NCBI GenBank assembly: GCA_039111155.1
Contig: JBCCPL010000009.1
Coordinates: 1 to 64,000 of the forward strand
Length of the DNA: 64,000 nucleotides
Direction: 5' to 3'
From: Pseudomonadota bacterium
GTDB taxonomy: Bacteria; Pseudomonadota; Gammaproteobacteria; Pseudomonadales; Halieaceae
Part shown: positions 10,797 through 31,458 of the stretch, piece after piece
Position numbering within the stretch: position 1 is the stretch's first letter
Layout: each line of letters opens with the position of its first letter
Program-made: the position numbers and the translations under genes
The notes under the pieces: model-generated
What the model was told of the DNA's origin: nothing
The model's database searches: none
The model's input: only the letters and a program-made list of their open reading frames with translations

Positions 10797-12548
10797 GTGG
10801 ATCAGACTATCGATACGGCAAACGAACCAAAAAATGGCGTGCAAGCCACACCGCCTGCGCGTGATAAAGCGAAGGCGCGTGCGCTCGCCGCAGCTGCGAA
10901 GAAGACACTCATCAAGCCGGACACGGTCAAGGCCTTCAAGAGCCTGCATACCTGGACCGGGGTAGGCGCGGGCATGGCTCTGTTTATCGCCTTCTTTGCC
11001 GGTGCATTGACGGTTTTTCACCACGAGCTGGGGGACTGGGATAGCTACGCCCAGCAAGTACCAAGGGAACAGACCATCGCGGAAGCTCAGCTGCTGGTGG
11101 AGCAAGCCATACTCGACGAGCCGGGTGCGGCAGAAAGCCTGAGGCTATATTTACCAGGCCATCACAGCAACGAGAACGAGGTCTACTGGTACGAGAGACT
11201 CGAGAACGATACGTTTGAGACCCATCGATGGCGCATGGATGATGCGGGAGGCATCGACACATCGCTAGAGACCGCACACGTGGCGGATTTCGTTTATCGA
11301 CTGCACTACACCGGTGGCCTGATGCCGGCACGTCTGGGCCTGTATGCCCTCGGTATCATTTGTGTGCTTTATGGCCTGGCACTGTTCTCCGGCGTGCTGC
11401 TTTTTATCCCCGGCTTTTTAAAAGACCTCTTGGTTGTGCGTAAAGGAGGCAAGAACCCGAAGCGCTTCTGGCTGGACGCACACAATGTGATTGGTGTGGT
11501 TTCGCTGCCCTTTCACATTCTGTTCGCCTGGAGCAGTGCAATTCTGGCGATTGGCGTGTTCTTTCTCGCGCCGTTTCAATACCTGGTGTTTGATGACGAT
11601 CTCACCAAACTCGTCGGTCCGGAACTTGGTTTTGTGGACGCCGTGGAACCAAAAAACGAGCCTGCCGAGATGCTGAGTATTGCTGAGGTCTTAGAGATCG
11701 TAGAGCGCGAACTACCTGGAATGGAACCCGAACAGGTGAGATTCGCCCACTATGGCGATGCAGGTAGCAGCGTCTCAGTGTACGGGGACGCTCCAACGGG
11801 CACCTTGGTAACGGGAGCCGGCGTCACTTTGAATGCGGTTTCCGGTGAAGTCATCTCCTACTTCGATCCTGCCCAGGCGACGCCCGGGGGCACCTTCTAC
11901 CGAGGCTTAATGACTCTGCACTTCGTGGATTTCGGCGGCTACTTCGTTAAGTGGACGTTCTTTACGCTGTCGATGCTCGGGGCGTTCCTGTTCTATTCGG
12001 GCAACCTGCTGTTCGTAGAGAGCCGCCGCAAGCGCCGGGAGCAGCAACAGCCCGGCAAGGCAGTCTTGCTGGCCAAACTTAACAGTGGCGTGTGTATCGG
12101 TGCGATCGCAGGTATCGCCATGGCGATGTTGGCGAGTCGCTTTTTCAGCAACCTGGAGGGCCGGGCGGATCTTACCGAGTTCGCTTACTACACTGTGTTT
12201 CTGCTTGGACTTGGCTGGTCAATCTATCGCCCGGTCGCAAAGGGAACGCGTGATCTACTGAACCTATCAGCCTTACTGTGCTGCGCGATCCCGGTAGTCG
12301 ACGCGACGCTGATCGGTATGCCGCTATGGAAGAGCTTTGTCGAAGGCCATTGGTCACTGTTCGTGATCGACGTCATGGCACTCACGATGGGCGTCTTATT
12401 CTTGCGAATCGCCCGCGCAGTATCACACCGGTCGAAGAACGGCCCTGAGAACAGTGTTTGGTACAACCGGCCAACCGATCGAGAAGCACAGGAGTTAGTA
12501 CCCAACGAAGTTTCTCCGCCGGTCGCAGTGGCGGTAGCAAAAAACTAA
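10797..12548 (+). CDS. PepSY-associated TM-helix (PepSY_TM) membrane protein
   Basis: Long first-TM region containing 'FKSLHTWTGVGAGMALFIAFFAGALTVFHHEL' (PiuB/PepSY_TM signature), followed by periplasmic domains and further TM helices; 583 aa. Confidence 0.7.
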   Translation: MDQTIDTANEPKNGVQATPPARDKAKARALAAAAKKTLIKPDTVKAFKSLHTWTGVGAGMALFIAFFAGALTVFHHELGDWDSYAQQVPREQTIAEAQLLVEQAILDEPGAAESLRLYLPGHHSNENEVYWYERLENDTFETHRWRMDDAGGIDTSLETAHVADFVYRLHYTGGLMPARLGLYALGIICVLYGLALFSGVLLFIPGFLKDLLVVRKGGKNPKRFWLDAHNVIGVVSLPFHILFAWSSAILAIGVFFLAPFQYLVFDDDLTKLVGPELGFVDAVEPKNEPAEMLSIAEVLEIVERELPGMEPEQVRFAHYGDAGSSVSVYGDAPTGTLVTGAGVTLNAVSGEVISYFDPAQATPGGTFYRGLMTLHFVDFGGYFVKWTFFTLSMLGAFLFYSGNLLFVESRRKRREQQQPGKAVLLAKLNSGVCIGAIAGIAMAMLASRFFSNLEGRADLTEFAYYTVFLLGLGWSIYRPVAKGTRDLLNLSALLCCAIPVVDATLIGMPLWKSFVEGHWSLFVIDVMALTMGVLFLRIARAVSHRSKNGPENSVWYNRPTDREAQELVPNEVSPPVAVAVAKN

Positions 12549-12781
12549 CGCCTCACGCGACGTCCATCCGACGCTGAATCCCTAGCTTCTCCCCGGCGTC
12601 GCATTGTAGGCGTTAACGTAGCGGTTTTAGCAGCGCAGCAGTTTTCGCTACCGACACCCCGCTTGATTTTTGTACCTGCTTTTCGCGCCGTGGGCCAGCA
12701 GGGACTGCACCCCAGGACGAGTTCTCTATCCTCACTAGCGAACCCGCGAAATTTCGAACTCAGAGAGTTCGAGATTCAATT

Positions 12782-13351
12782 TCATGAGTTTGACAAGCAC
12801 GCGCTTGTCAGTCGCGCATACAGGCCCGCAACTAACACTCCACTCATTACACCCGCAAGATGCATTTCAAATGAAATGCGTGAATCCGAGGGCACAAGAC
12901 CCCATACCATGCCGCCGTAGAAGAAAACTACGACGACGGCCATGAGCACGCTTTTCAATTTCCGGTCTAACCAGGCAATGCTGATCAGCATCCCCCACAG
13001 TCCATAAACCCAACCGCTTGCACCCAAGTGCGCCGCTTCGCGACCAAAAAGCCAGACCAAGCCACCGCTAATGGCGATGATGCAGGCGCTGCCGAACAGG
13101 AATAGAAGTCTCGATCGGAGAGCTACCATGGATCCAAATACGAGCAGACCCGTGCAGTTGCTCATCAAGTGTGATGAGTTCGCATGTACGAATGGCGCGC
13201 TGAAGATCGTAAACCAACGGCTGTCTGAACGCGGGAGGACACCGTAGAGTTCTGGGCGCAGACCTACCCCGATTGCTGCGGCATGAGCGAGGACCTCTAG
13301 CAATACAACGGCGGTAACCAAGGTTAGTGCCTTCGCCAATCGCCGCAGCAT
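12782..13351 (-). CDS. rhomboid-family intramembrane serine protease (last gene of the giant-ATPase operon)
   Basis: Textbook rhomboid motifs: 'FVHANSSHLMSN' (TM2 H/N), 'GASGWVYGL' (GxSG catalytic Ser, TM4), 'HLAGVMSGVLVAGLY' (catalytic His, TM6). Start at 13351 abuts the stop of the upstream giant gene (13352). Confidence 0.85.
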   Translation of the reverse strand: MLRRLAKALTLVTAVVLLEVLAHAAAIGVGLRPELYGVLPRSDSRWFTIFSAPFVHANSSHLMSNCTGLLVFGSMVALRSRLLFLFGSACIIAISGGLVWLFGREAAHLGASGWVYGLWGMLISIAWLDRKLKSVLMAVVVVFFYGGMVWGLVPSDSRISFEMHLAGVMSGVLVAGLYARLTSACLSNS

Positions 13352-16300
13352 CTAACTACCTGGTGGAGACTCGCCCGCGTCGTGCAGCTCGTCTTGTAGG
13401 CTACGGAGTTGTTGCGAAACCTCGACCATTTTTTCGTGAGTGCGTAGATCGATATCGAGTTTTTTATCCATGTTGCGAATCAGGGGCATAATGCTGTGCT
13501 CTAGAGAATCGGCAAGCGCATTTAAGACCTTATCAATGCCCGGTACGGGTCTGTTCTCGACGGTCACAGCGGGTGCATTCTCCTGTATCGCGGTCACCAA
13601 ACGATCTGCCAATTCCTCAACGCCGGCACGACCCTGCTCATTTTGCTCCGTGGATGACGCAGAAGCCTTTGTTGCCAGTGCGTCTACTCCATTCACCAGG
13701 TCAACGAGCTGCGCCACAACTTTATTGCCCACATCGGCATCGTCGCCGCCGATGGCTTTGTTACGCAAAAAATCCGCCTTAATCTGTTCCCAGCGCTGCC
13801 TCTCCTCCGCGCTCATCACACCGCGCAATTCTTGCAGCTTTAGAAGATTCGCCTCCGCTCCAGTGGTCAAAAGCTGTGCTTCGCCGAGATAGTGATCTTC
13901 GATCATTTGCTGAAGCTCTTCGTCGTTCATCACGGAGGAAATCTTCTCCGTCATTTTGTTCATGTTGCGGTAGCTGCCCTGTAGTTTGAACGGTGGCTCA
14001 ACTCTATACGCGTCCTCTTGGCCAGCTGATTCGATATATTGCTGATTGATCTTCAAGACGATGTCCTGAACTACGAACATCTTGCGCAGCACAGCGGTGA
14101 TTTCATTGATTTCGGCGGCGCTGTAGGCATGGCTGAGATCAGAGGTTGCGACCTCTGCGCCTTTAGCGATAGCAACGAGTTTGTAGACGTCGCCCATCTC
14201 CCGCGTCGCGAGCGGTGCCAGAGCAGTATTGGAAGTCAGGGCGTTTTCGACGTAGCTGAGCGCAAACTGCTCTTCCATTCCACCAAGAATGTCGCCCAAA
14301 TTGTAGATATCTGCGCGGTTGGCCAGCATATCGGGAACTTTGAACGTCTCACCGCTTTCTGTGTAGGGATTACCTGCCATGACTACACAGAACTTTTTTC
14401 CACGCATGTCGTAGGTCTTGCTGACACCCTTCCAAACGCCTTCGATGCGTCGCGTGCCATCACAGAGGGATATGAACTTCTGTAGAAACTCCGGATGGGT
14501 ATGCTGAATATCGTCTAGGTACAGCATTACGTTGGAGCCCATTTCAAGTGCAAGATTGAGTTTTTCAAGCTCACTGGAAGCAGTCGAATTTGGCGCTTGT
14601 AGCGGATCGAGGGACTTAACGTCGTGGCCAAGTGCGGGACAATTGATCTTCATGAAAACAAGACCCAGACGACTGGCGACGTATTCCATCAAGGTTGTCT
14701 TACCGTAACCCGGTGGTGAAATCATCATCAGCAGGCCCATGAGGTCCGTTCTCTTGCTCTGGCCGAAAGTACCCATCTGCTTCGCTAGGTTGTCCCCGAT
14801 GAGTGGTAGATATGACTCATTAATCAAGCGATTGCGAACGAACGAACTCAGTGGTCGGGCCCGGAACTCCTCAAGGCGTAGATTTTTACGAGCGAAAGAA
14901 ACTGCCGACCGACGCTGTTCAAGATAGCTTTGATATGCGGGCACAACCTCGGTTCTATGCTGTTCCAAACGCAATAGGAACGTATCAATGGCAAACTCGA
15001 GAGACTGATCTTTAATCGTGGGATGTTCCCCAAGGAGTCCGCCGACTCGCAGCTCAGTTTCAACCGAGGTAGCCCGCCGGGTCAGGGTCTTTTCCGCATT
15101 GATGTGTGCTACCGCCTCAGGAATATAATGCTCGTAGTGAGACAGTCCTTTGCTCTTGACCATGGCAGTAAGCCACGCCGTGCTCAATTGCCATCGCTGG
15201 GCAGGCCAGCCTTTCATTTGCCGCAGCGCGTGCTTTAGCTGTCGCCAGGTCCGCTCGCCAACGGCCGTTGTCAGTTCTGTGACCAACGATTGCGCATACT
15301 TACTGCCAATAAACTCAAGATGCTCACGACTCAACTCTTCGACCAAGTATTGAGCAGCCCGCTGCACCTGCAGCGTCGAGACGGGAATCGGATGCAGATC
15401 GAGAAAGTCCTGAAGCGCTCGCTGCACTTCTTGGGACAACAGGCTTAGGGCGTCGCTACGTGCAAATGTTGACTTCATCTGTGCGCCGGATTGCGCACGC
15501 TCACGCCAGGTCTCGTGCGAAAGGCGCTGCACCGGGGTGCCGGGATCGATTTCGACAATCGTCTCCGTGGCATGCAGGTTCGCCCAAAACACCTGCGCAA
15601 GACCGCGGCTGGCCGGGTCAAAGGTCAGCAGGTCGCAGCGCTGCATGGCCGAGGTGACTTCGTCAAGAATCAGGAGCGCATCGTGATCATGAACGCCCTT
15701 TACGTATCCTTCTTTGTAGTGCTTGGTGACAAATCTCTGAATTAGAGCCTCAAGTTTCTTGCGGTCGACTGGCGCATTGTCTGCGGTCGCGTTCGCAAAG
15801 TCTTGTCCCCGTTGCAGCTCCACAAGGACCGTGTACGCAAGGTATTCGCTCCGGTATACCGTCGGACCCTCGGACTCAAGGGTCATTTCCCAGTAGTCGC
15901 TAAGCGCATCTAGACTCGGGTCGTCGATTGGCTCAAAGAAATCAGTTCCTGTGAGATGAAGGTCGAGACGACCCTCCCGCGGGATGATACTGAGATCAAG
16001 CTCCTGTGTATTGACGGAGAAACGATGCCGGGGCCCAAGCCGAATGACGGCTCCATCGTCCTCGAAAATATCGCTCTTATCACGAAGCGAACGGTGTGCC
16101 AGCTCGCTGGCGGCTTTGAATCGAGCCTCTATGTCATCGGCTTTTACCGCACTCCCTAAATCGCGGAGCTGCTCGCAGAAATCTCCAACTTTAAGCACTA
16201 GGGGGTCAGATGCAAAATAGGTGTTCAATGCATCCTGATCGGCCAGAGTAAGAGAGCGCTTTTCGATATTTACCAGTGTCCGCTCTGCTGCATCGGCAAT

Positions 16301-18619
16301 CGACTGTGATTTACGTTGACGCTCATCGAGCAATTGCTGCTTACGCGTCTCGAAGGACTCGTAGACTTCCTCCCGCTTTGCTACAAGTTCACCGATGAAC
16401 TGCTCATGCTCTCCAAACTGGCCCTCCAGATCCTCTAACTGAACCAAAAGGCGCGACAGAAGCTCATCACAGCGCTTCGGCGTGTCCGATTTACTCAAAT
16501 TGTTAGCCACGCTCTGTGAAAACAGCTTGAACTGGGCACTGAACTGAGCGGTCGCCTCCTCAGACCCCAACGATTTGGCTTTGAGCCTCGCTGTTGCGCG
16601 AATACGATTAAGCAGCGCGTAGACTTGAGAGATCGAATCGATGATCTCCGTATGCAGAGTTGCATCGTCTACACTCAGGGTACTGACAAGCTCCGAAAGC
16701 AAGTCAAGATCGGAGGATGTAGCTTCTAGGCTTTCGAGTACCGGCTTAAGCTCCGACATCGTTTTTGCGGTCTCGAGCGCAGCTTCAAAACTCTGAGCCT
16801 TGCTTTCGTAAGGAGTCAGTGCGTCTGCAGAGGACAGAAAGGCTGTGGTTTTCGCACTCAGTTCCTGCTCGACAGCCTCTAGATCGACACTCATCAGTTT
16901 TACCTGATTAATGTCTATGTAACGAAGCTCTTGGATTGTCACCAGATGACCGCGCTGGCGGCGCAGCTTACCCAGAGTAGTTACGTACTGCTCTGCGGAG
17001 TCCCAACTCTCTGGCCGCACCGACTGCAGGAGAGCCTTCTGTTCTGTCCGCGCATCGCGCAATGCGATTTCTGACTGCTCACGAATTGCGTGGACTTTTT
17101 CAAATTCATCGATGACAAGATCGGCGGTTTCAGCGATTTGCCGAGCTAGTAGGCCCACCGCAGCTACTTCATCGTCCGCCAACCAAAAATGATCATCAAA
17201 CAACTTGCTAGCAATACGCCTTAGTTCTTCATAATGCCTTGTTGATACGGTTTCGTTGTCAATATGGCGACACATGGCGTAGAGATCCGATACGCCGCGG
17301 ACCAGTTCAGCATTACCGATCCGAGAGTAAAAGGTCTGTCCGATTGACTTGTATGCCGCATGTTCCTCACTGGAAAACGGTGTATGCCAGAGCTGCATTG
17401 GATGCACGCGGGTAGCTTCTTCTTCAGCTGAAAAGATGACCAGGCCGCCATCAGCGGCAAGCGCATAGCCGTGGCAGACGATTGGATTGGCGAGCTCTTT
17501 CCGAATCAGATTGTAGGCCAACAATGCCGACGTGCCCGACTCCGGTGCGTAAAAAACATACAACACGTCCTCACCATTGGGTGAACGAACGCGTTGACGA
17601 AACTTTAAGTTGGGTACGAAATCGCTGAGCGACTTGTATTCACCGGTCTCTAGAAAATAACCGCCCGGAAAAATGACACCGTGATCATCGGGAAGCTGCA
17701 CACACGATGCGCCGATGGCATCAACCCGCGTGACATTCTCAGTCAGTGAATTGAAAATGAGAAAACGCCACTGTTGTTCTCTGTAAGGGCGAACCTTTAG
17801 CAAGATCAGATTGCCAACCAGCGCGTAAGCAAGCTGTACGTCGTCAAGGGACTGGGTAGCATCCTCCACCGGCTCGCTGTAGATGCCGAGACCGTCTTCT
17901 GTATTGTTTTCAACTTTGACCGTTAATGTGCCGTCCAAGGTTTCAACGAATACCCGGTCGCGAACATTGATGTGCGCGTGGCGGCCGTGGACAAAGTCAT
18001 CACGACTAGTTTCAATCCAATCGAAGTCAAAGGCGGGTGGCGGCCTGATATCACGCTCACCGCGGTTATCGATGTATTCAACACGAGAACCGTCGGGGGA
18101 AAGGGTCCAGCGAAACACACGTATATCGCTAAGGCGCTCACCGATCTGGAAGCCAGCAAGCAGCTTACCGTCGCGAACCGTCAGTTCGATCAACTGCGTG
18201 TGCTTGTAATAACGATATAGTTCGTCGAAGTCGTTAACGAACCTTTGCTCCGCTAAAAAACTCCCAACCAGTGGTACGGCCGTCATATCCACACTGTCAG
18301 TGTCAGTGTTGACGTCGAACAGTGCGAAGACATCGGCGACCCGGGTTTCTCTCTTGAGCCCGATGAAAACGTTATAGCCAAACAGTAGGTGCCCGCCTAC
18401 CTGAACGATGTCGCGCGCTACACAGTTGTTTTCGGTACGCACGCGGGTACGACCGACAACCCGCATGTCCGATGCTCCGAATTCATCTACTCGGGCCTGA
18501 TTCAGGGAGGCTATTTGTGCCTGAAGGTCCTGCGACTGCATATCCAGTCGCTTGCGGATGACTTCATAGGCGCCCCCCTGCGCGACGGCATCATCGACTT
18601 GTGACTCTTCCTGGCTCAC
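13352..18619 (-). CDS. giant (1755 aa) multidomain P-loop/AAA+-like ATPase with long coiled-coil regions; function unknown
   Basis: Uninterrupted 5.27-kb ORF. Walker A 'MISPPGYGKTTL' at about residue 1300 (nt ~14693-14740) and Walker B-like 'VMLYLDDIQH' about 65 aa later. N-terminal ~450 aa beta-rich. Residues ~500-1000 are strongly helical, E/L/A/Q/S-rich coiled-coil-like; C-terminal ~300 aa helical. Codon usage matches its neighbours. Confidence 0.75.
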   Translation of the reverse strand: MSQEESQVDDAVAQGGAYEVIRKRLDMQSQDLQAQIASLNQARVDEFGASDMRVVGRTRVRTENNCVARDIVQVGGHLLFGYNVFIGLKRETRVADVFALFDVNTDTDSVDMTAVPLVGSFLAEQRFVNDFDELYRYYKHTQLIELTVRDGKLLAGFQIGERLSDIRVFRWTLSPDGSRVEYIDNRGERDIRPPPAFDFDWIETSRDDFVHGRHAHINVRDRVFVETLDGTLTVKVENNTEDGLGIYSEPVEDATQSLDDVQLAYALVGNLILLKVRPYREQQWRFLIFNSLTENVTRVDAIGASCVQLPDDHGVIFPGGYFLETGEYKSLSDFVPNLKFRQRVRSPNGEDVLYVFYAPESGTSALLAYNLIRKELANPIVCHGYALAADGGLVIFSAEEEATRVHPMQLWHTPFSSEEHAAYKSIGQTFYSRIGNAELVRGVSDLYAMCRHIDNETVSTRHYEELRRIASKLFDDHFWLADDEVAAVGLLARQIAETADLVIDEFEKVHAIREQSEIALRDARTEQKALLQSVRPESWDSAEQYVTTLGKLRRQRGHLVTIQELRYIDINQVKLMSVDLEAVEQELSAKTTAFLSSADALTPYESKAQSFEAALETAKTMSELKPVLESLEATSSDLDLLSELVSTLSVDDATLHTEIIDSISQVYALLNRIRATARLKAKSLGSEEATAQFSAQFKLFSQSVANNLSKSDTPKRCDELLSRLLVQLEDLEGQFGEHEQFIGELVAKREEVYESFETRKQQLLDERQRKSQSIADAAERTLVNIEKRSLTLADQDALNTYFASDPLVLKVGDFCEQLRDLGSAVKADDIEARFKAASELAHRSLRDKSDIFEDDGAVIRLGPRHRFSVNTQELDLSIIPREGRLDLHLTGTDFFEPIDDPSLDALSDYWEMTLESEGPTVYRSEYLAYTVLVELQRGQDFANATADNAPVDRKKLEALIQRFVTKHYKEGYVKGVHDHDALLILDEVTSAMQRCDLLTFDPASRGLAQVFWANLHATETIVEIDPGTPVQRLSHETWRERAQSGAQMKSTFARSDALSLLSQEVQRALQDFLDLHPIPVSTLQVQRAAQYLVEELSREHLEFIGSKYAQSLVTELTTAVGERTWRQLKHALRQMKGWPAQRWQLSTAWLTAMVKSKGLSHYEHYIPEAVAHINAEKTLTRRATSVETELRVGGLLGEHPTIKDQSLEFAIDTFLLRLEQHRTEVVPAYQSYLEQRRSAVSFARKNLRLEEFRARPLSSFVRNRLINESYLPLIGDNLAKQMGTFGQSKRTDLMGLLMMISPPGYGKTTLMEYVASRLGLVFMKINCPALGHDVKSLDPLQAPNSTASSELEKLNLALEMGSNVMLYLDDIQHTHPEFLQKFISLCDGTRRIEGVWKGVSKTYDMRGKKFCVVMAGNPYTESGETFKVPDMLANRADIYNLGDILGGMEEQFALSYVENALTSNTALAPLATREMGDVYKLVAIAKGAEVATSDLSHAYSAAEINEITAVLRKMFVVQDIVLKINQQYIESAGQEDAYRVEPPFKLQGSYRNMNKMTEKISSVMNDEELQQMIEDHYLGEAQLLTTGAEANLLKLQELRGVMSAEERQRWEQIKADFLRNKAIGGDDADVGNKVVAQLVDLVNGVDALATKASASSTEQNEQGRAGVEELADRLVTAIQENAPAVTVENRPVPGIDKVLNALADSLEHSIMPLIRNMDKKLDIDLRTHEKMVEVSQQLRSLQDELHDAGESPPGS

Positions 18620-18647
18620 TCGTGCTACTCCGGTGCCGCTTGGACCA

Positions 18648-20534
18648 TCAAATCGAATCGCGCTCTGTCGCTACACTCGCCTCGGGGCGAGCTTCCAAAA
18701 CCCGGTCAATAAGGGCAGAGATCGTGCCACTCTTCTCCGCAAGCCCATCCACCGCTTTCCCGATGGATAGTGACTTGGCGAAGTTGTCGAAGAAGTGCTC
18801 TTCACCACCCACAATATCGATCTTTGCTTTTTCAAGCGCAGTTGCCAGAACCTCCGCATTCTCGCGAGCTATTTCTTTACCGGCTTCGATAGACGCCAAC
18901 GCCTCCCTAAGGGCTGTCTCCAGACCCATGCGGTACTCCTCGTGAGCCCGGGCTTCCACGCTCATGCTGTTCATTGCGTCGAACTTATCGGTTAGGCCGT
19001 CGGCCTCGGCCTTGAACTGCTCTCGGGTAACCTCGGCCTGGGCCTTGCCGGTTCCGAGAAGAGCATCCGCCTCGGCATCGCCCTTCGCCTTGATCACAGT
19101 TGCCTCGGCAAGGCCTTCTTTTTCTAGCGCATCGGCTTTTGCGGCCTGCACTCGTGCCTCGGCGAGCCCTGTTGCGGCTTCCTCCGCCTGTGTACCCTCG
19201 GCGAGCTGCTTCTTTGCATCGGCCTCTTTTGCGGCTGCATCCAACTCAGCCTGAGCGATCGTTGTGATTTCCACTGCCTTGTGGCGAGCGGCGGCCTCCT
19301 CGGCTTCTGCAGCTTTCACTTGCTTGGTTTTTTCCTCCTCTGCCTGCGCTTCCGCCGCAAGAACCTGGGTCTGCTTAAGGCGATCCGCCTCGGAAACTTC
19401 ACGAACCTCCTTAATGTTCTCTTCCTCGATTGCTACGGTCTTGTCGACGGCGACCCTTTCACGAATGACGTTGGCGATTTCCTTCTTTTCAACCTCAACG
19501 GCTTTCTCCGCCTCTATCTTTTGCAGCTCGACCTCTCGCTCCCGGGATACAACTTCCAGATCGCGTGCTCGCGTCACCTTCTCCTGCTCGATAGCCACTG
19601 CTCGCTGACGATTCTGCTCCGCCACCTCGATCTCCCGCTGCTGATTCTCGGTCTGTACGGCAAGTTCCTGCGCTACCTGAATCGCAGTAGTTTCAGCCCG
19701 TTGCCGCTCTTCTTCTTGTACTTTTTTAGTCTCCGCTTCTTCACGGGCACGAATGGTCGCTATTTCACGCTCTTGCTTGGCTTCCGCGTCCGCTTGCTGG
19801 CGCTCCAGTTCGAGCATGGCCTCGACGGTCTCCACGTTCTTCTTCTTTATCGCCAACTCTTCGTCACGTTCGAGATCATTTGTGCGGACGTTCTGTGCTG
19901 CCGTAAGTTCTGTGATTTTCTTGATGCCTTCTGCATCTAGAATATTGGTGGGATCGAGAGAGCCTTTAGGAGTCTGCTCAAGATAATCGATGGCAACATC
20001 CTCGAGTACGTAGCCGTTCAGATCGTCTCCGATCACCTGGATAATCTTTTCTCGGAAGTCCTGACGATTTTCGAACAACTGCACAAAGTCGATCTGCTTG
20101 CCTACAGTTTTCAGCGCTTCAGAGAACTTGGCATTGAACAGCTCGTTCACAGCGACCCTGTCTGATGCACGGCTCGCTCCGATCGATTTTGCGACCTTTA
20201 AAACATCGTCCGCAGTCTCGTTCACCCGTAAGTAGAACGCGACAACGATGTCAGCGCGCATATTGTCTTTACAGATCAGTCCATCCGTTCCCCGCCGATC
20301 TATCTCCAGAGTGATCAGTGAGATACGCATTAGCTCTTTCTTGTAAATGATTGGGTAAACAAGTGCGCCCGTGAAATGAACCTTCGGACGCGAACTCATA
20401 TCGTTCACAATCAGCGCAGTCCCCTGCTCGACCTTCACATAGAAAGCCTTAAAGATGGCTGCAAATCCCATCAGGATGACAAAGAAAATGCCTACGCCAG
20501 TCACAATAGGCATTAACACAGAAAGGTCAGCCAT
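18648..20534 (-). CDS. flotillin-family SPFH/band-7 protein (YqiK-like)
   Basis: N-terminal TM helix, SPFH core ('VKVEQGTALIVNDMSS...', 'RADIVVAFYLRV'), then ~250 aa of E/A/K/Q-rich flotillin-type coiled coil; 628 aa. Confidence 0.9.
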   Translation of the reverse strand: MADLSVLMPIVTGVGIFFVILMGFAAIFKAFYVKVEQGTALIVNDMSSRPKVHFTGALVYPIIYKKELMRISLITLEIDRRGTDGLICKDNMRADIVVAFYLRVNETADDVLKVAKSIGASRASDRVAVNELFNAKFSEALKTVGKQIDFVQLFENRQDFREKIIQVIGDDLNGYVLEDVAIDYLEQTPKGSLDPTNILDAEGIKKITELTAAQNVRTNDLERDEELAIKKKNVETVEAMLELERQQADAEAKQEREIATIRAREEAETKKVQEEERQRAETTAIQVAQELAVQTENQQREIEVAEQNRQRAVAIEQEKVTRARDLEVVSREREVELQKIEAEKAVEVEKKEIANVIRERVAVDKTVAIEEENIKEVREVSEADRLKQTQVLAAEAQAEEEKTKQVKAAEAEEAAARHKAVEITTIAQAELDAAAKEADAKKQLAEGTQAEEAATGLAEARVQAAKADALEKEGLAEATVIKAKGDAEADALLGTGKAQAEVTREQFKAEADGLTDKFDAMNSMSVEARAHEEYRMGLETALREALASIEAGKEIARENAEVLATALEKAKIDIVGGEEHFFDNFAKSLSIGKAVDGLAEKSGTISALIDRVLEARPEASVATERDSI

Positions 20535-20592
20535 AGTGTTTACTCCAGTTTCTTTTGAATAAAAGTATCGTTAGGTACAAACGCCTGGCCGC

Positions 20593-21282
20593 TTAGCCAC
20601 CACGAAACTCATCTTCCGAGATAACCCGATACACGCCTTCATCTTTGCGATGTTCAAGCAGCACTACCCGATCACCGCGGGTATAGGTCGCGTCACCGGT
20701 AGCACGAACCTTCAGGATCAGGCCTGCGCCGCCGTCTTCGAGTAGAGCTTCGCCAAATTCTGCATTGACAACAGACGTGCGTACGACCGCCGACTGTCCG
20801 AGTACCTTCTTGACGGTTTGTTGAAGCGCTTTTTTAAACAGCGGACGCATTGGTTTGATCACTTGCGCAGTGATCATCGTTGCCACGTAAAGCGCCAAGC
20901 CAAGGATTGGAATACCCGCACCGAAACGCAGAAAACCTTCCGGCAGGGGCCGAAGAAAAAAGTGGCTGAGATAATAGGAGATCAACCACCCAAACAGCGC
21001 GATACAGGACACGATGATCGTTACGGGGACACCGGTCAGCCCGAAGCGCAAGAGCAGGCCAGCCAAAACATCCGGATTGGATAGCCCCTGATCTGCAGCT
21101 CCAAGCACGCTATCTGTCTCGGGCAGGTCAAAGTCGAGAAACTCGATATCTACGAGCCCAAGAACTGCGATCGCCCAGTAGAGCAGTACCACACCGAGAA
21201 GGACGGTAAAGACAATCGTCGGAAAAGAAGCAATCGTCTGGTAGAACGGGTTCATACCTTCAGTCAGAAAAATCGCGAACAT
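20593..21282 (-). CDS. YqiJ/NfeD-like inner-membrane protein (flotillin operon partner)
   Basis: Polytopic membrane N-half and soluble beta-rich C-half ('VVRTSVVNAEFGEALLEDGGAGLILKVRATGDATYTRGDRVVLLE'), resembling the NfeD/YqiJ OB-fold tail. Positioned immediately upstream of the flotillin gene, as in yqiJK-type pairs. Confidence 0.6.
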   Translation of the reverse strand: MFAIFLTEGMNPFYQTIASFPTIVFTVLLGVVLLYWAIAVLGLVDIEFLDFDLPETDSVLGAADQGLSNPDVLAGLLLRFGLTGVPVTIIVSCIALFGWLISYYLSHFFLRPLPEGFLRFGAGIPILGLALYVATMITAQVIKPMRPLFKKALQQTVKKVLGQSAVVRTSVVNAEFGEALLEDGGAGLILKVRATGDATYTRGDRVVLLEHRKDEGVYRVISEDEFRGG

Positions 21283-21355
21283 GAAAGCTCCGGGGCAGAT
21301 TCAGGTCTGATGACGCGCAGCAGTGCGGCGCTGAGGTAACAACAGGTCGCTACGC

Positions 21356-22042
21356 CTACTGTTTTGCCCTGAGACGGTCCAGCACCTCATCGGCGCTCGC
21401 GCCTGACGGCGCAATTCCCGCCTGCTCCAATTTGGTCTGTAGAGTTTCACTGGAGCTCTCATCGGCCAGATCGCGGGCCGCGTTCATCCTCGCCGCATTC
21501 AGCGCCTGCTTCTCCTTGATGCGCTCCAACGAATCCATCGCGGTACGCATCTTTGAGTTAGAACCACTATGACGCTCGGCAACAGCGGCTTGTGCGCGCT
21601 GTACGTTTTCTGTGGCTTTGACTGTATCCACCTGCTGCTTGATGCGTTTCAAATTCTGTTCGGTTTGATTGATCGCCGCGCGTAAATCATCGGCCTGCTT
21701 TTTGTAACCCGCAACGGACTCCCGCTCGTGGGTAAGCTGGTTTTCCATATCTGCGATTTTCTCAGCGACATCCCGCGCTAAAGCAGTATCACCCTTGTCG
21801 AGAGCCTGAATGGCATAGCCTTCGTGCTCCTCGATCTTGGCTACCAAACTCTCCGATTTCTCTTCCGCAAGCTTCTGGTGAGCAAGTATTTCTGCCAGTC
21901 CGTCCCGCGATAGCTTTAATTCTTCTGCTGCGTCTCGAACCTCCTGGTCGAGAATTCTCAGGGCCTGAGAATCCACGATCGCCTCTCCCGCTTCATTCAC
22001 ACCACCACGAAGCGCCGTCATCATTTTTGCCCAGATATTCAT
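21356..22042 (-). CDS. PspA/IM30-family protein (bacterial ESCRT-III homologue; YjfJ-like)
   Basis: 228-aa all-helical protein. N-terminus 'MNIWAKMMTALRGGVNEAGEAIVDSQALRILDQEVRDAAEELKLSRDGLAEILAHQKLAEEK' matches the PspA/IM30 helix-0/helix-1 layout. No pspBC or pspF nearby. Confidence 0.8.
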   Translation of the reverse strand: MNIWAKMMTALRGGVNEAGEAIVDSQALRILDQEVRDAAEELKLSRDGLAEILAHQKLAEEKSESLVAKIEEHEGYAIQALDKGDTALARDVAEKIADMENQLTHERESVAGYKKQADDLRAAINQTEQNLKRIKQQVDTVKATENVQRAQAAVAERHSGSNSKMRTAMDSLERIKEKQALNAARMNAARDLADESSSETLQTKLEQAGIAPSGASADEVLDRLRAKQ

Positions 22043-22060
22043 AGCTCTTACTGCCTCCGT

Positions 22061-22690
22061 TTAGACGGCCTCTGCCGTAACGTCGAGAAACTCCATATAG
22101 GCTTGTGTCGCCTGCAATACATTGCTCGCTAGCACTTCAATCTCAAGCACGACATTCTGCAGCTTGGATGCGGCACTCAATGCACCGAACATTTGGTAGA
22201 CCTCATCATCATCGCTGATTCTGTCGAGACTGATCGTTGAAAGGGGAAAGTACTTGTGTGTTCGAAGCACAGCATCGTTGAACGCTGCGACATCTACCAC
22301 GTCACTGGCTGGCCAGAGCACCGACTCAGCAATGATCTGCTCCCCCGAGACGGTGAGAAAAATCGGTAGATCCCCGTATTCGGTCATGACGATATGCAGT
22401 GATGCATCCACACCATCAATGAGTTCGATTCTCGCGCGCCCGGTAGTTGTCATCTCGTGATCGCTGAGCGCCTCATATAGGCTTTTTGTACTCCAAAAAT
22501 CCACCTTCTCACTCATGCTTACACCTCCTTCCGGTTTGAGCTGATCACGGTCCTCACGCAAAAGCTTCTCTATCCGCAACAATTCCCTCGAGGTCTCGGG
22601 GCGAATCCAGACTTCTTTTTTCACTAAGCCTTTTTGGCGTAACCGCTTGCGGTATTCGCGTTGATAATGCGCTGAAGATTTGATCACCAT
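22061..22690 (-). CDS. fusion of an N-terminal ribbon-helix-helix-like DNA-binding module with a DUF2170 (YjfI-like) domain
   Basis: From Met at 22690: 'MVIKSSAHYQREYRKRLRQKGLVKKEVWIRPETSRELLRIEKLLRE' (basic beta-strand then helix, RHH/CopG-like), followed by ~150 aa resembling the YjfI/DUF2170 partner of YjfJ-type PspA. The longest ORF extends to 22801, but that extension overlaps the palindromic promoter region. Confidence 0.5.
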   Translation of the reverse strand: MVIKSSAHYQREYRKRLRQKGLVKKEVWIRPETSRELLRIEKLLREDRDQLKPEGGVSMSEKVDFWSTKSLYEALSDHEMTTTGRARIELIDGVDASLHIVMTEYGDLPIFLTVSGEQIIAESVLWPASDVVDVAAFNDAVLRTHKYFPLSTISLDRISDDDEVYQMFGALSAASKLQNVVLEIEVLASNVLQATQAYMEFLDVTAEAV

Positions 22691-22707
22691 GGATGCAGCG
22701 TAGCATG

Positions 22708-22740
22708 TTACATGTAAGATTAAAATGATATTACATGTAA
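22708..22740 (-). promoter_or_regulatory. pair of perfect TTACATGTAA palindromes (putative operator) overlapping the operon promoter
   Basis: TTACATGTAA at 22708-22717 and 22731-22740 (centres 23 bp apart, AT-rich spacer), 18-50 nt upstream of the ATG at 22690. Further ACATGT-core half-sites at 23015-23023 and 23050-23055. Confidence 0.45.
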
Positions 22741-23426
22741 TAGTTTGAAAGGATAATTGAACAAGCCTGAGTGGCGTTACACCCGACGCGCATGGACGCA
22801 TGGATTTGTGGCTTCCATAAGCGCCTGATTGCCGGAGTTCAGGTCATTCCTTGAGCCTTACTCTGAGTCTTCGGAGCGTTAAGCCGGGAATTGCCTTTGA
22901 TCCCAGATCTTAAGAAACCCACATCGATGGATTGGCATTGAAGACCCGCGCCCTGCGCTCGGTATGGTATCGGTTCGCACAGAAAATCACCGAGATACAA
23001 AGATTTCTCTCTATTACATGTTCCCGGCGAGACGCGGGTAGACGCCTGCACATGTAGCTGCTTCTACTGAGTTCGCTAAGCGAACCTTGATAAACAACGC
23101 TTCACCGACTCAGTGGTAATCGGGCAAGCGAGTGAGTAGACAGTTAACGCTTCGACGAAAACCGCTGGTTTGCGGTTCGTCGAGAGGCGAATCGGACGTA
23201 GCGATAGCCGCAGGTCAAAGAAAGTCTGATCATGATCACCCGAAGCATTCCAAACAGGGCCGCATCGAGCGGCATAGAGACAGGCTGCGAGGGACTAAAT
23301 CCCGCCCTATGAAGACCACAGATTTTTGACGGTTGAGTGAAAAAGCACTCTTTAGAGTTATAGAAAGCAATTCATCAGGGCAGCGATTGCAAACTGAAAC
23401 AATTAAGTCGAGACGAGATCGGCGCA

Positions 23427-23816
23427 CTAACCCAACGCGACGGAGGCAACCAGGGCAATCAGGCCGACTAGAAAAGCCGCGTGCTCAATGAAAGCTAGCG
23501 TGTCGAACCGGATCCAATCCTGCCACTTGTTTTCGTAGATGCTCTCAGTCAGTTCTATGGTCTTTCCATCCTTGGCGACATTCTGTATTGCGGCTGGGAT
23601 GGCCCCGACCAGTAACGTCGCGGCAATTACTGATATCAGTAACGCCACTACAGCAGTGATCAACAAGCGTCCCGGCCATGTCTCAATGCTAAAGACAGCG
23701 CTTTTGGCTATCGTGATACCGACAGCCGACAACGTTTGAATCGAAATCGCCCATTTGCTCCAGTCGGCTAGACTGTTTAGCGCTTCGATTCTTCGTTTCT
23801 CTATATCGTCTGCCAT
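23427..23816 (-). CDS. hypothetical small membrane protein (129 aa)
   Basis: Three to four predicted TM helices; no motif recognised. Confidence 0.4.
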   Translation of the reverse strand: MADDIEKRRIEALNSLADWSKWAISIQTLSAVGITIAKSAVFSIETWPGRLLITAVVALLISVIAATLLVGAIPAAIQNVAKDGKTIELTESIYENKWQDWIRFDTLAFIEHAAFLVGLIALVASVALG

Positions 23817-24058
23817 TCAGCTGCCGCTCACGTCAATTGGTACCCTTGGATACACGCACTGCGATAAGACGTGATTAAACACGCCGCAGTTAGGCGTTGT
23901 CGCTACCACAGATGCTCCATGCCCTTGCTCTATTGGTTGTACGCTCGGTGGCTCGTGACTGGGTGGCAATGCTTCGAAAATTTTTTACACCCGCTGCATC
24001 CATCTGCACTAATCCCACGTCTCCATAAACGACGCAATCAAAAACATGAGGAGGCTAG

Positions 24059-24440
24059 TGTGGGCGATCTCGGGATGTTCGGATTCTGGATGTTCATTGC
24101 GGCTGCGGTTCTTGGCGGTATCTGGAGCGATGTAAAGTCGAAAGAGTCCAAGCAGGAAACCCTGCGCCGGCTTGTTGAGAGCGGCCAGGAGATTAATGCG
24201 CAGACTTTAGATGCGTTGTTGAACGGTGCTGACTCGCGTGACAACGAGCGTGAGTATCGCATTGGTTCCTACGTGCTTGGCGGGGTGGCGCTAGGTCTGT
24301 TCGTGTTCAGCCTATTTCTGGGCATTGTGTCGTCAGATGCTCGTTGGGTGCTGATGGGCGTGTCCTTTCTTGTAGCTTGTATCGCCGGTGGGCTTCGAGT
24401 GGCCTCTCACTACGTTGCGCGTGACCAACAGAGCTTCTAA
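24059..24440 (+). CDS. small membrane protein, first gene of the ECF sigma operon
   Basis: AGGAGG 5 nt upstream of GTG at 24059. Two TM helices flanking a charged loop; ends 9 nt before the sigma factor gene. Confidence 0.45.
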
Positions 24441-24449
24441 CCAGCGCAG

Positions 24450-25001
24450 ATGCGTGATGTTCAAAAGCACTATGAGGACGGTCCCGAAGCGTTGATCGTC
24501 AGCCTGGCGACGCGCGGTGATCGCGCGGCATTCAGTGAACTGGTACGCCGCCGCCAGGTATGGATACGCGGACTGTTTCGTCGCTTCTGCAATGAACCGA
24601 CACTTGCGGACGACTTGTCCCAGCGGGTTTTCCTAAAAATGTGGAAGCAAATCCGCTCCCTAAAGCATCCCGAACGATTCGCAGGCTGGTTAAAACGAAT
24701 CGCGATTAACGAATGGATAGACCATCAACGAAAATATGGATCAGATTGGGATGAAAGCTTTGACGAAGACGCGCAATCGACGACCATGCCCTCCCCGTCC
24801 ACGGCGATCGACCTGAACTTTGCGTTGTCCGAACTACCACCGCAGGTTCGGACCTGCATGGTTCTGGCCTACCATGAGTGCATGACTCATCCAGAGATTG
24901 TAGAGGCGACAGGCTTGCCTGCGGGCACCGTTAAATCTCACATACGTCGGGGTAGTGCTCGCTTGCGCGAACGGTTGAAAGACTACGAGGTAACTTCATG
25001 A
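24450..25001 (+). CDS. ECF (sigma-70 family group IV) RNA polymerase sigma factor
   Basis: Region 2 ('FSELVRRRQVWIRGLFRRF', 'WLKRIAINEWIDHQRK') and region 4 HTH ('LAYHECMTHPEIVEATGLPAGTVKSHIRRGSARLRERL'). Confidence 0.85.
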   Translation: MRDVQKHYEDGPEALIVSLATRGDRAAFSELVRRRQVWIRGLFRRFCNEPTLADDLSQRVFLKMWKQIRSLKHPERFAGWLKRIAINEWIDHQRKYGSDWDESFDEDAQSTTMPSPSTAIDLNFALSELPPQVRTCMVLAYHECMTHPEIVEATGLPAGTVKSHIRRGSARLRERLKDYEVTS

Positions 25002-25345
25002 GGGACGAGCTGGATCCTGACCTGTTATCACTCTTTGAAGAGCAGCAGCCGATACCTGGCAGCACCGACTTCACCGCGTGTGTGATGGCGGGGGTCGACC
25101 GGCGGCGCATCGGTTTTCGTGCGCTTCAGCTGGGGATTGTTATTCTACTGATCGCGCTGGAGCTCGTTTTCGAATCTCCGATCAGTCAGTCAATGGGAGC
25201 CCTCAATTCCGCAATGAAAAGCTCTGTATTAGAACTTGAGGGCGACTGGATCTCATTCATCCTGGAACCGGTGAACTCCGTAGCTGGTGTGTTAGGCATG
25301 GTGCTGTTGGGCGTTCATTTTTTGATGCGACGTTTCCTTCGCTAA
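24998..25345 (+). CDS. putative anti-sigma factor (single-pass membrane protein)
   Basis: ATGA overlap with the sigma gene; one TM helix (LQLGIVILLIALELVF); typical position and size of an ECF anti-sigma. Confidence 0.45.
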   Translation: MRDELDPDLLSLFEEQQPIPGSTDFTACVMAGVDRRRIGFRALQLGIVILLIALELVFESPISQSMGALNSAMKSSVLELEGDWISFILEPVNSVAGVLGMVLLGVHFLMRRFLR

Positions 25346-29761: not shown

Positions 29762-31458
29762 TGCGCAGTATCAACCGCAGTGACTACGCCAGCATGTATG
29801 GGCCAACCGTGGGTGATCAGGTTCGTCTCGCCGACACAGACCTGTTCATTGAAGTAGAGTCTGATCGCACGCTCTACGGTGAAGAGGTCAAGTTTGGGGG
29901 CGGTAAAGTCATTCGCGACGGCATGGGGCAGGCCCAGGTAAGTTGTGCCGACAGCCCCGATACGGTGATCACCAACGCTCTGATTCTTGACTACTGGGGG
30001 ATCGTTAAGGCCGACGTTGCGTTAAATGCGGGGCGAATTCAGGCTATTGGCAAGGCAGGCAACCCCGACATTCAACCGGGAGTCACCATAACGATTGGCC
30101 CGGGAACTGAGATCATTGCCGGTGAGGGTCAGATTCTGACGGCCGGGGGAATCGACGCCCACATCCACTTTATTTGCCCTCAGCAGATCGAAGAAGCTCT
30201 GATGAGCGGAGTAACCACCATGATTGGGGGCGGTACGGGACCGGCCACCGGTACCAACGCCACCACCTGCACACCCGGACCCTGGCACATCGGCAAGATG
30301 CTGCAATCGGCCGAAGCATTCCCGATGAATCTTGGATTCTTAGGCAAGGGGAATGCGAGTTTGCCGATCGCGCTGCGTGAGCAGTTAAAGGCCGGTGCCC
30401 TGGGTCTGAAGCTGCATGAAGACTGGGGCACAACACCTGCGGCGATTGATAACTGCCTGTCGGTCGCCGAAGAGTTTGACGTGCAGGTTGCCATTCACAC
30501 CGACACGCTCAATGAATCGGGATTCGTCGAGGACACAATCGCTGCTTTTAAAGGGCGCACTATTCACACGTATCACACTGAGGGTGCCGGCGGTGGCCAC
30601 GCGCCGGACATCATAAAGGCCTGCGAGCTTCCAAACGTATTGCCCTCTTCTACCAACCCCACGCGCCCCTACACCATCAATACGGTAGACGAACACCTGG
30701 ACATGTTAATGGTGTGCCATCACCTTGATCCGTCGATCCCCGAGGACGTGGCTTTTGCAGACTCGCGTATTCGTAAGGAGACCATAGCGGCGGAAGACAT
30801 TCTTCACGATCTGGGCGCGTTCTCGATTATCTCCTCCGACTCTCAGGCCATGGGGCGTGTCGGCGAGGTAATCTGTCGAACCTGGCAAACGGCCAGCAAG
30901 ATGAAAACGCAGCGCGGCAAGCTCGCAGACGGCGCCGCCGATAATTTCCGCGCCAAACGCTACATCGCCAAGTACACGATCAATCCGGCGCGGGCGCACG
31001 GTGTTGATCACGAGGTTGGATCTATCGAGGAGGGCAAGCTTGCGGATCTGTGCTTATGGAAGCCGGCGTTCTTCGGCGTAAAGCCCTCGCTGATTATCAA
31101 AGGTGGCGCCATCGCAGCGGCGCCTATGGGAGATGCCAACGCGTCGATACCCACGCCCCAGCCGGTGCACTACCGGCCTATGTTCGGCGCCTTTGGAGGG
31201 GCGCTTCGAACGACCAGTGTGAGCTTTGTCAGTGAAGCGTCCCTGGAGCTGGGGTTGGCAGAGAAGCTGGGACTGCAACGCCCCTTGCGAGCGGTGCGTG
31301 GTTGTCGCACTGTCACTAAGGCCGACATGGTACTGAACGACTACCAACCCAAAATGGAAGTCGATCCTCAGACCTACGAGGTGCGGGCCGATGGCGAGCT
31401 TCTAACCTGTGAGCCTGCGACTGTGCTGCCGATGGCGCAGCGGTACTTTTTATTCTAA
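29761..31458 (+). CDS. ureC: urease alpha subunit (nickel metalloenzyme)
   Basis: 565 aa; '[13 protein letters not shown]', 'MVCHHLD', 'GGGHAPDII' active-site motifs. Confidence 0.95.

Follow-up and report, generated by a model that had tools for sequence, protein, structure and literature searches.

A bac-type PspA-flotillin-ATPase operon with a rhomboid protease gene in a Halieaceae genome, with a putative BacA-operator circuit

Introduction

The closest described counterpart of the operon examined here, which forms part of a 64,000-nucleotide stretch (positions 1 to 64,000 of contig JBCCPL010000009.1, assembly GCA_039111155.1; hereafter, the window) from a pseudomonadotan bacterium of the family Halieaceae, is the bac operon of Pseudomonas aeruginosa. 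Mace et al. (2008) described a "biofilm-associated cluster", PA3732-PA3729, around the PspA-like protein PA3731, whose levels are raised in biofilm and by osmotic shock (PMC2587700). Wallart et al. (2024) demonstrated by reverse transcription PCR that six genes, bacABCDEF (PA14_16140-16200), are co-transcribed, found by proteomics that BacB to BacF are up 6-13-fold in a PA14 bacA transposon mutant, solved the crystal structure of BacA (8Q8O), and proposed a sigma-54 promoter for the operon (PMC10948618). Further, PA3728-PA3732 were induced in all phage-infected samples (PMC12041424), the P. aeruginosa orthologue of BacD is the SPFH protein PaFlo3 (PA14_16180; PMC13086221), and an interaction between BacA and BacB has been predicted with an AlphaFold2 (AF2) probability of 0.98 (PMC13092808).

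At a broader level, Ravi et al. (2024) delineated a class of operons in which CesT/Tir-PspA is combined with a transmembrane (TM) band-7-flotillin, a novel AAA+ ATPase, YqiJ/YuaF and, optionally, a phospholipase D (PLD) family protein, and reported that abbreviated flotillin/YqiJ(/ATPase) versions are widespread (PMC11237479). Two smaller modules of Escherichia coli, yqiJ-yqiK and yjfI-yjfJ, and the classical phage-shock (Psp) system encoded by pspF and pspABCDE, also share components with the locus.

Here we show that the window locus is a member of the bac, or CesT-PspA-flotillin-AAA+, operon class and no new kind of system. An initial annotation of this DNA, made from its sequence, had put it forward as an undescribed membrane-remodelling system; it is instead an orthologue of P. 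aeruginosa bacABCDEF (PMC2587700; PMC10948618) and belongs to the operon class of Ravi et al. (PMC11237479). As a whole, we consider it probable that the operon is a PspF-independent envelope-stress module of the phage-shock type, built in layers and controlled by the BacA switch proposed below.

Results and Discussion

Identity and Conservation of the Operon

The operon comprises six consecutive minus-strand open reading frames (ORFs) at 12782-22690, separated from bacA to bacF by 18, 73, 58, 28, and 0 nt (Table 1), and the block of six genes with gaps of 0-73 nt in the initial annotation is thereby confirmed. The first ORF as listed reaches 22801. However, all homologues open with M-x-x-K-S-S-A-H-Y-Q-R at the position of the ATG at 22690, which is also where the alignment to the NCBIfam model begins; therefore, we place the bacA start at 22690 and not at 22801.

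Profile searches recovered essentially the domains that had been assigned (DUF2170, PspA_IM30, DUF3686 plus AAA, and Rhomboid). BacA matches Pfam DUF2170 with 169 bits and the NCBIfam family "biofilm formation regulator BacA" with 302 bits (cut-off 300), and its residues 65-204 match the P. aeruginosa structure 8Q8O (E=1e-42). BacB matches PspA_IM30 over its whole length (156 bits; cut-off 33.9), and BacF matches Rhomboid with 69.7 bits (cut-off 22.6). BacC and BacD have no Pfam match even at E=10, the Band_7 model being silent, and neither the flotillin nor the YqiJ-like protein gave a significant match to PDB sequences. Their labels as flotillin and YqiJ/NfeD-like protein nevertheless hold, as BacD aligns with E. 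coli YqiK by BLASTP (31% identity over 480 aa, E=2e-47) and a BacC profile of 24 sequences aligns with E. coli YqiJ by hhalign (probability 94%, E=1e-7); four of the 24 BacC homologues match PF21001 (YqiJ_N). By a hydropathy scan (window 19, threshold 1.6), BacC has three hydrophobic stretches, BacD a single N-terminal one, and the rhomboid several, with none of TM strength in BacE.

Table 1. Genes and candidate regulatory features of the operon (window positions).
Feature	Positions	Strand	Description
bacA	22061..22690	-	209 aa; ~60-aa N-terminal basic domain + DUF2170/YjfI (CesT/Tir-like chaperone) domain
bacB	21356..22042	-	228 aa; PspA/IM30 (ESCRT-III superfamily)
bacC	20593..21282	-	229 aa; YqiJ/YuaF-like membrane protein, three hydrophobic segments + C-terminal soluble domain
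bacD	18648..20534	-	628 aa; YqiK-type flotillin (SPFH), N-terminal membrane anchor
bacE	13352..18619	-	1755-aa soluble ATPase; DUF3686 31-478, DUF7902 599-682, AAA+ ~1295-1420
bacF (this genome)	12782..13351	-	189-aa rhomboid intramembrane serine protease
Operator palindrome 1, TTACATGTAA	22731..22740		Distal copy
Operator palindrome 2, TTACATGTAA	22708..22717		23 bp from copy 1, inside promoter spacer
Candidate -10 hexamer, TACGCT	22697..22702	-	6 nt before bacA ATG; aligned T-A-n-n-n-T column in 24 upstream regions
Weak terminator-like hairpin	12547..12564	-	~220 nt 3' of bacF, at end of convergent PepSY_TM gene; candidate operon end

Compared with P. aeruginosa bac (PA3732-PA3727), the first five genes are of the same families in the same order, the palindrome pair and promoter layout are shared, and protein identities are about 45-55%; the sixth gene, by contrast, is of the PLD family in P. 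aeruginosa and a rhomboid gene in the window. This assignment is based on a Pseudomonas paraeruginosa locus (L029; labels of the form L0xx and L1xx denote individual compared loci) that is colinear with the published PA14 operon and carries bacA to bacE in matching order and strand, with an ATPase 54% identical to that of the window, followed by a gene for a PLDc_2 protein. By position in L029, therefore, the published bacF is a PLD-family gene and not a rhomboid gene. No PLD homologue was found in the 64-kb window.

The conservation of the operon was examined by a one-genome-per-species scan with the ATPase profile, which returned at least 582 relatives. Eighty of these loci were compared, with the six proteins of the window as queries against ORFs from all six frames, and 69 had enough flank for architectures to be counted. 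In this set, which was collected through the ATPase, the YqiJ-like protein, the flotillin, and the ATPase form a constant core (68 of 69 loci), while the other genes behave as add-ons: the DUF2170-PspA dyad is present in about two-thirds of the loci, the rhomboid in about one-third, and the PLD hydrolase in about one-third. Among the loci with full flanks, 23 have the architecture ABCDE, 20 CDE, 19 ABCDEF, 2 CDEF, 1 BCDEF, and 1 the ATPase gene alone. All six genes thus occur together in 19 of the 80 loci, nearly all in the window order, and most other loci carry subsets, which indicates a conserved operon and not chance adjacency. Outside the Proteobacteria, both loci checked, one in Deinococcus and one on a Streptomyces megaplasmid, likewise have the C-D-E triad.

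These counts answer the question, raised in the initial annotation, of whether the giant ATPase always accompanies the other components: it does so almost invariably for flotillin, but not for PspA or the rhomboid. They also overturn the suggestion that such an ATPase is not normally seen with a flotillin/NfeD pair, since the YqiJ-like and flotillin genes lie directly upstream of it in the same 68 loci. The component list and the abbreviated versions of Ravi et al. fit the 80 loci as well, although their paper mentions no rhomboid, no N-terminal domain on the DUF2170 protein, and no operator (PMC11237479). With respect to the E. coli modules, BacD is a clear homologue of YqiK and BacC a remote homologue of YqiJ, whereas the E. 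coli pair is without an adjoining ATPase gene; the counterparts of BacA and BacB are YjfI and YjfJ, whose genes are unlinked to yqiJ-yqiK in E. coli.

BacA and Its Putative Operator

The most conserved part of BacA is not the DUF2170 domain but its first ~45 residues (K-S-S-A-H-Y-Q-R-x-x-R-x-R-L-R-E-Q-G-L-V-K-K-E-V-W-I-L-P-E). In 16 of 24 sequences, this N-terminus is matched by PF11455, "Antitoxin MazE-like", in every case below threshold (best E=0.0048). An AF2 model of BacA resolved the DUF2170 domain and gave the N-terminus as a helix, an unstructured stretch, and a further helix with a predicted local distance difference test (pLDDT) score of 40-56. The reading of BacA as a ribbon-helix-helix-DUF2170 protein is thus borne out in its second half, while the ribbon-helix-helix fold is left unconfirmed by this low-scoring model and the sub-threshold MazE-like matches. 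We regard the N-terminal domain as putatively DNA-binding-like and weakly MazE-like.

In the crystallized P. aeruginosa BacA (8Q8O, 146 aa), an internal Met is the first residue, and this ~60-aa domain is missing. The BacA of L029 is identical to the 8Q8O sequence at 139 of 140 positions. The domain's absence from the published construct and structure appears to be a new detail, as far as the searched literature shows. The BacA record of the source metagenome-assembled genome is likewise short (151 aa), with the N-terminal domain encoded in frame upstream (window 22061-22690; L029 5683-6303).

Upstream of bacA, the palindromic operator region in the initial annotation resolves into two perfect copies of TTACATGTAA. 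They are the sole matches to TYACATGTRA in the 64 kb, where 0.15 would be expected. The genome loci retrieved for comparison, 1.8 Mb in total, contain 75 matches to this pattern, of which 70 lie in the 200 nt preceding bacA and are almost invariably paired at a spacing of 21-25 bp; the motif is found in 35 of the 39 loci with a long BacA, including those of Pseudomonas, Xanthomonadales, Betaproteobacteria, and Gilliamella. In two loci, the YjfI-like BacA ORF is too small for an N-terminal domain (at most ~155 aa in L043 and ~135 aa in L073), and TYACATGTRA is absent from both of them and, except for one stray match (L066), from all CDE-only loci. The occurrence of paired conserved palindromes over the promoter appears, within the literature searched, to be a new detail. 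As a separate observation, in both short-BacA loci the genes for the short DUF2170 protein and PspA (L043 5879-7056; L073 5712-6836) diverge from C-D-E, and this arrangement is presumably regulated in another way.

An alignment of 24 orthologous upstream regions showed ACATGT cores that are invariant or nearly so, a TTG(A) -35 element between the two copies, and a TAnnnT -10 element 5-7 nt before the ATG. Ribosome-binding sites are of the GGAG type for genes B to E and of the AGGT type for gene F, with no Shine-Dalgarno sequence for bacA. The position of the -10 element together with the missing Shine-Dalgarno sequence implies a sigma-70-type promoter and a leaderless or near-leaderless bacA mRNA, as predicted from the DNA. 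A search for sigma-54-like sites (TGGCAC-N5-TTGCW, at most two mismatches) found none in 22690-23430. A promoter and terminator scan across the operon, covering internal promoters and the terminator hairpin, gave nothing above shuffled expectation.

The Giant ATPase

BacE is composed of an N-terminal DUF3686 domain (643 bits), DUF7902, and a C-terminal region matched by AAA, AAA_5, and AAA_22, with invariant Walker A (GYGKTT), Walker B (LYLDD), and sensor-1-like (AGNP) motifs; Pfam found no protease domain in it, and the hydropathy scan no membrane anchor. The family is large, with at least 5767 homologues in several bacterial phyla. A protein of a metagenome-assembled genome listed at NCBI as "Pseudomonadota bacterium" is 100% identical to BacE. 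Identity between BacE and its homologues in the 80 genomes is 51-68%; the nearest relatives, 60-68% identical, include Cellvibrionaceae and other marine gammaproteobacteria, and similarity declines with taxonomy as vertical inheritance predicts.

For the C-terminal 606 aa, an AF2 model had a mean pLDDT of 59.7 (70-80 in the AAA core), and Foldseek matched it to generic AAA+ proteins at E ~1e-4, with MCM and NorQ/CbbQ on top and p97 and HslU also among the matches. Because the model is of low confidence and the fold matches are generic, no AAA+ clade is assigned. The BacE profile had no sequence relatives in the PDB, and a literature search for DUF3686 returned no papers. The P. aeruginosa orthologue PA14_16190 is annotated as "ATPase involved in DNA repair" (PMC8855297), and our literature search found no support for the database name "DNA repair ATPase".

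In the Walker B motif (residues 1366-1370), all 16 aligned homologues have LYLDD, where Asp replaces the catalytic Glu that is usual at this position, and BacE may therefore hydrolyse slowly or serve as a nucleotide switch. Since bacE comes after the flotillin pair in loci without PspA as well, we infer that it is a flotillin-associated remodelling or extraction ATPase and not a PspA disassemblase.

The Rhomboid Protease

The residues H56, H61, and N65 (H..H...N in TM2), the G-A-S112-G motif, and H164 (TM6) are invariant across 19 BacF orthologues. These proteins should therefore be active proteases, as judged from their catalytic residues. The match of BacF to the rhombosortase model TIGR03902 (48.3 bits) is below its cut-off of 84.

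In the window, the TAG stop codon of bacE directly abuts the ATG of bacF, and the two ORFs share a reading frame. A read-through fusion of the two genes was considered and rejected, as in-frame adjacency occurs in 6 of 21 loci, which is the chance level. Among the 80 loci, the ATPase gene is followed by rhomboid and PLD genes in tandem in 13, by a rhomboid gene only in 8, and by a PLD gene only in 7 (plus 2 at a distance). The idea that the two hydrolases are mutually exclusive occupants of one slot was likewise dropped in view of the 13 tandem loci.

In the reverse direction, 80 metagenome loci encoding BacF-like rhomboids were searched in the same way as the ATPase-based loci. The ATPase gene was directly upstream in 10 of them, and about 13 had an adjoining DUF2170-PspA dyad but no flotillin or ATPase. 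The remaining loci were on short contigs or without a bac gene, and more than half of the sample had no bac gene nearby. Two of the dyad loci are polyamine-type PspA operons of Ravi et al. (PMC11237479), both without flotillin and ATPase: L130 (6340-12570) reads A-B-rhomboid-K+ channel-DUF2491-DUF350-DUF1190-glutathionylspermidine synthase, and L123 (2899-8534) reads spermine synthase-A-B-x-x-K+ channel-rhomboid. Because the rhomboid stands beside DUF2170-PspA dyads that have no ATPase, it is not an ATPase-specific partner; BacF-type rhomboids appear to be a floating accessory of YjfI/PspA membrane-stress operons generally, which appears to be a new detail.

The term rhomboid occurs in neither PMC10948618 nor PMC11237479 and supplement, and no paper joining a rhomboid, flotillin, and PspA in bacteria was found in the literature searched. 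The claim that a rhomboid is not normally a partner of these genes thus stands insofar as the association is apparently unreported there, and fails insofar as the gene is an optional accessory and not part of a core.

A module of the polyamine type was also seen on the Pseudomonas fluorescens megaplasmid pQBR103 (L084, NC_009444.1 86434-103617), where DUF2491-DUF350-DUF1190-glutathionylspermidine synthase directly precedes the YqiJ-like/SPFH/ATPase triad. Two PspA-associated operon classes are fused at this site, and no PspA gene lies within that stretch.

Proposed Mechanism and Alternatives

We propose that the operon is built from an ancient core triad, a regulatory and effector dyad, and optional membrane hydrolases. 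The triad would consist of the membrane protein BacC, the flotillin BacD, and the soluble ATPase BacE with its propeller, coiled-coil, and AAA+ parts; the dyad would pair BacA, which combines DNA-binding-like and CesT-like domains, with the PspA homologue BacB; and the hydrolases would be the rhomboid here, the PLD-family protein in P. aeruginosa, and both in many genomes. A BacA dimer might bind both TTACATGTAA palindromes, which overlap the sigma-70-type promoter, and keep the operon repressed, while its chaperone domain would hold PspA. Upon membrane damage, PspA would move to the membrane or the flotillin platform, the operator occupancy of BacA would be altered, and the operon would be induced. 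At the membrane, flotillin and BacC may form an SPFH scaffold at which BacE, using ATP, acts on scaffold or client proteins by remodelling or extraction, and the rhomboid may clip the TM segments of clients or the scaffold anchor. In short, BacA may be an autorepressor whose N-terminal domain acts on the palindromes and whose CesT-like domain acts on PspA. Such autorepression would account for the reported rise of BacB to BacF in the bacA mutant, for which transposon read-out is the alternative.

This scheme resembles the classical Psp response in its PspA effector, in the induction of the characterized orthologue by phage, osmotic, or envelope stress, and in a regulator that contacts PspA in both, which suggests a similar partner-switch logic. 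However, the classical system has PspB/C, PspF, and sigma-54. As initially annotated, no pspBC or pspF domains were found in the operon or its immediate flanks, and no sigma-54-like site in 22690-23430; the regulator here would instead be a small protein in which a repressor is fused to a chaperone, working at a sigma-70 promoter. The triad, in turn, recalls other SPFH-scaffolded assemblies. HflK/C-FtsH and the mitochondrial SLP2-PARL-YME1L complex both join an SPFH scaffold to an AAA+ enzyme and/or a membrane protease. A stomatin-NfeD(ClpP-like) pair, PH1511/PH1510, provides an NfeD-protease precedent (cited in PMC13086221). BacE differs from these enzymes in having neither a protease domain nor a membrane anchor, and for the window operon the likeness is a resemblance only, known from its genes.

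A more far-reaching version of the proposal would join an overlooked BacA repressor-chaperone fusion of an antitoxin-like DNA-binding domain and a CesT-like domain that binds PspA, acting through twin TTACATGTAA sites as a leaderless, sigma-70-dependent phage-shock circuit that dispenses with PspF and sigma-54, to a triad that works with a rhomboid and/or PLD as an SPFH-scaffolded, ATP-driven quality-control hub for membrane proteins and lipids, like HflKC-FtsH or SLP2-PARL-YME1L. We offer this version as speculation that, taken in full, is unlikely to be correct.

Several points weigh against the proposed switch and module. The up-regulation in the bacA mutant stems from a transposon insertion that possibly reads out into the downstream genes, and deletion of paFlo3 (bacD) in PA14 has little phenotype (PMC13086221). 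DNA binding by BacA is deduced from co-occurrence, its N-terminal domain being the part with the low-scoring model and below-threshold Pfam similarity. The published sigma-54 proposal conflicts with a sigma-70 reading of the candidate promoter. BacE has DD and not DE in Walker B, and its poorly modelled C-terminus leaves the AAA+ clade uncertain. All evidence in this organism is from sequence, and the substrate of the rhomboid is hypothetical.

An alternative to a flotillin-associated ATPase is the Vps4 analogy drawn in the initial annotation, an ESCRT-III-like machine in which PspA is the remodelling polymer, the giant ATPase its disassembly factor, flotillin a mere raft scaffold, and the rhomboid a substrate-processing enzyme. 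In its favour, PspA/IM30 proteins fall in the ESCRT-III superfamily, and in 45 of the 69 loci the genes for PspA and the ATPase belong to one operon; Ravi et al. have also speculated on ESCRT-like roles for PspA-AAA+ associations (PMC11237479). Against it, the ATPase has no adjacent PspA in 22 proteobacterial loci or in the Deinococcus and Streptomyces loci, whereas the flotillin pair almost always adjoins it. Further, Pfam found no MIT or Vps4_C domain in BacE, and the fold matches of the low-confidence model are generic or MoxR/MCM-like, led by MCM and NorQ/CbbQ and not by Vps4 or spastin. The BacF-type rhomboid, moreover, also occurs in PspA operons that have no ATPase. We therefore consider the analogy quite improbable. 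The rhomboid could also be a neighbour without a functional link, which would reduce the operon proper to five genes; its absence from about two-thirds of the loci and the many metagenome relatives with no bac gene nearby would be expected if so. However, in 21 loci, which come from several orders of gammaproteobacteria, the gene directly adjoins that of the ATPase or overlaps with it, and it is kept elsewhere in the locus in three others (divergent upstream of bacA in L013 and L046, between B and C in L032), and the same subfamily adjoins DUF2170-PspA dyads in polyamine-type operons. Mere adjacency is therefore also doubtful, to a similar degree as the analogy with Vps4.

Less probable than either is a role in anti-phage defence or abortive infection, in which the large NTPase would sense infection and the flotillin, rhomboid, or PLD/Nuc-like nuclease would serve as effectors of cell death or arrest. 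Phage induction of the P. aeruginosa orthologues (PMC12041424), the frequency of large ATPases and PLD-family proteins in defence systems, and the database label "DNA repair ATPase" could all be cited in its favour. However, phage induction is what a classical Psp envelope-stress response gives and is not evidence of immunity. PADLOC-DB 2.0 gave only weak matches for PspA (JetC, LmuB, and PbeC; E 5e-4 to 6e-3), which we read as coiled-coil noise. Phage records contained no member of the ATPase family, and among 72,556 plasmid records only 13 did, most of them for megaplasmids or chromids; the similarity pattern of the family is vertical. The locus is chromosomal, its flanks are ordinary and hold no mobile-element or recognizable defence genes, and its GC content (0.52-0.56) equals that of the surroundings, in agreement with the earlier view that it is not a defence island.

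For the envelope-stress module that we favour, these results have several consequences. The bac/PspA-flotillin-ATPase module occurs widely and, in P. aeruginosa, influences virulence as well as biofilm formation and responds to phage infection; its giant ATPase belongs with the flotillin pair and not with PspA. The N-terminal domain of BacA and the palindrome pair may account in a simple and testable way for the negative control that BacA is reported to exert, and they also call the proposed sigma-54 promoter into question. Finally, a rhomboid subfamily in YjfI/PspA operons could make it possible to study a bacterial rhomboid whose physiological context is defined.

Genomic Surroundings

The operon is flanked by genes for a methyltransferase, a PepSY_TM protein, an extracytoplasmic function (ECF) sigma factor, and an aminotransferase, and a scan of the window with Rfam gave no match in or beside it. 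Between the bacA operator and an upstream gene for a 129-aa membrane protein, an unusually long segment of about 690 nt (22741-23426) is without a listed ORF of at least 80 aa. Within it, 23066-23082 and 23098-23114 form an imperfect inverted repeat, and a 13-nt sequence at 23096 recurs in direct orientation at 23146; Rfam gave no match to the segment. Divergent from the operon and upstream of it, 23871-25345 on the plus strand encodes a DUF6249 protein, the ECF-type sigma factor (Sigma70_r2/r4), and, downstream of it, a small ORF with no Pfam match. Farther away, 29910-30196 on the minus strand matches the Rfam family 5_ureB_sRNA (101 bits, E=2e-25), which suggests a urease gene cluster nearby.

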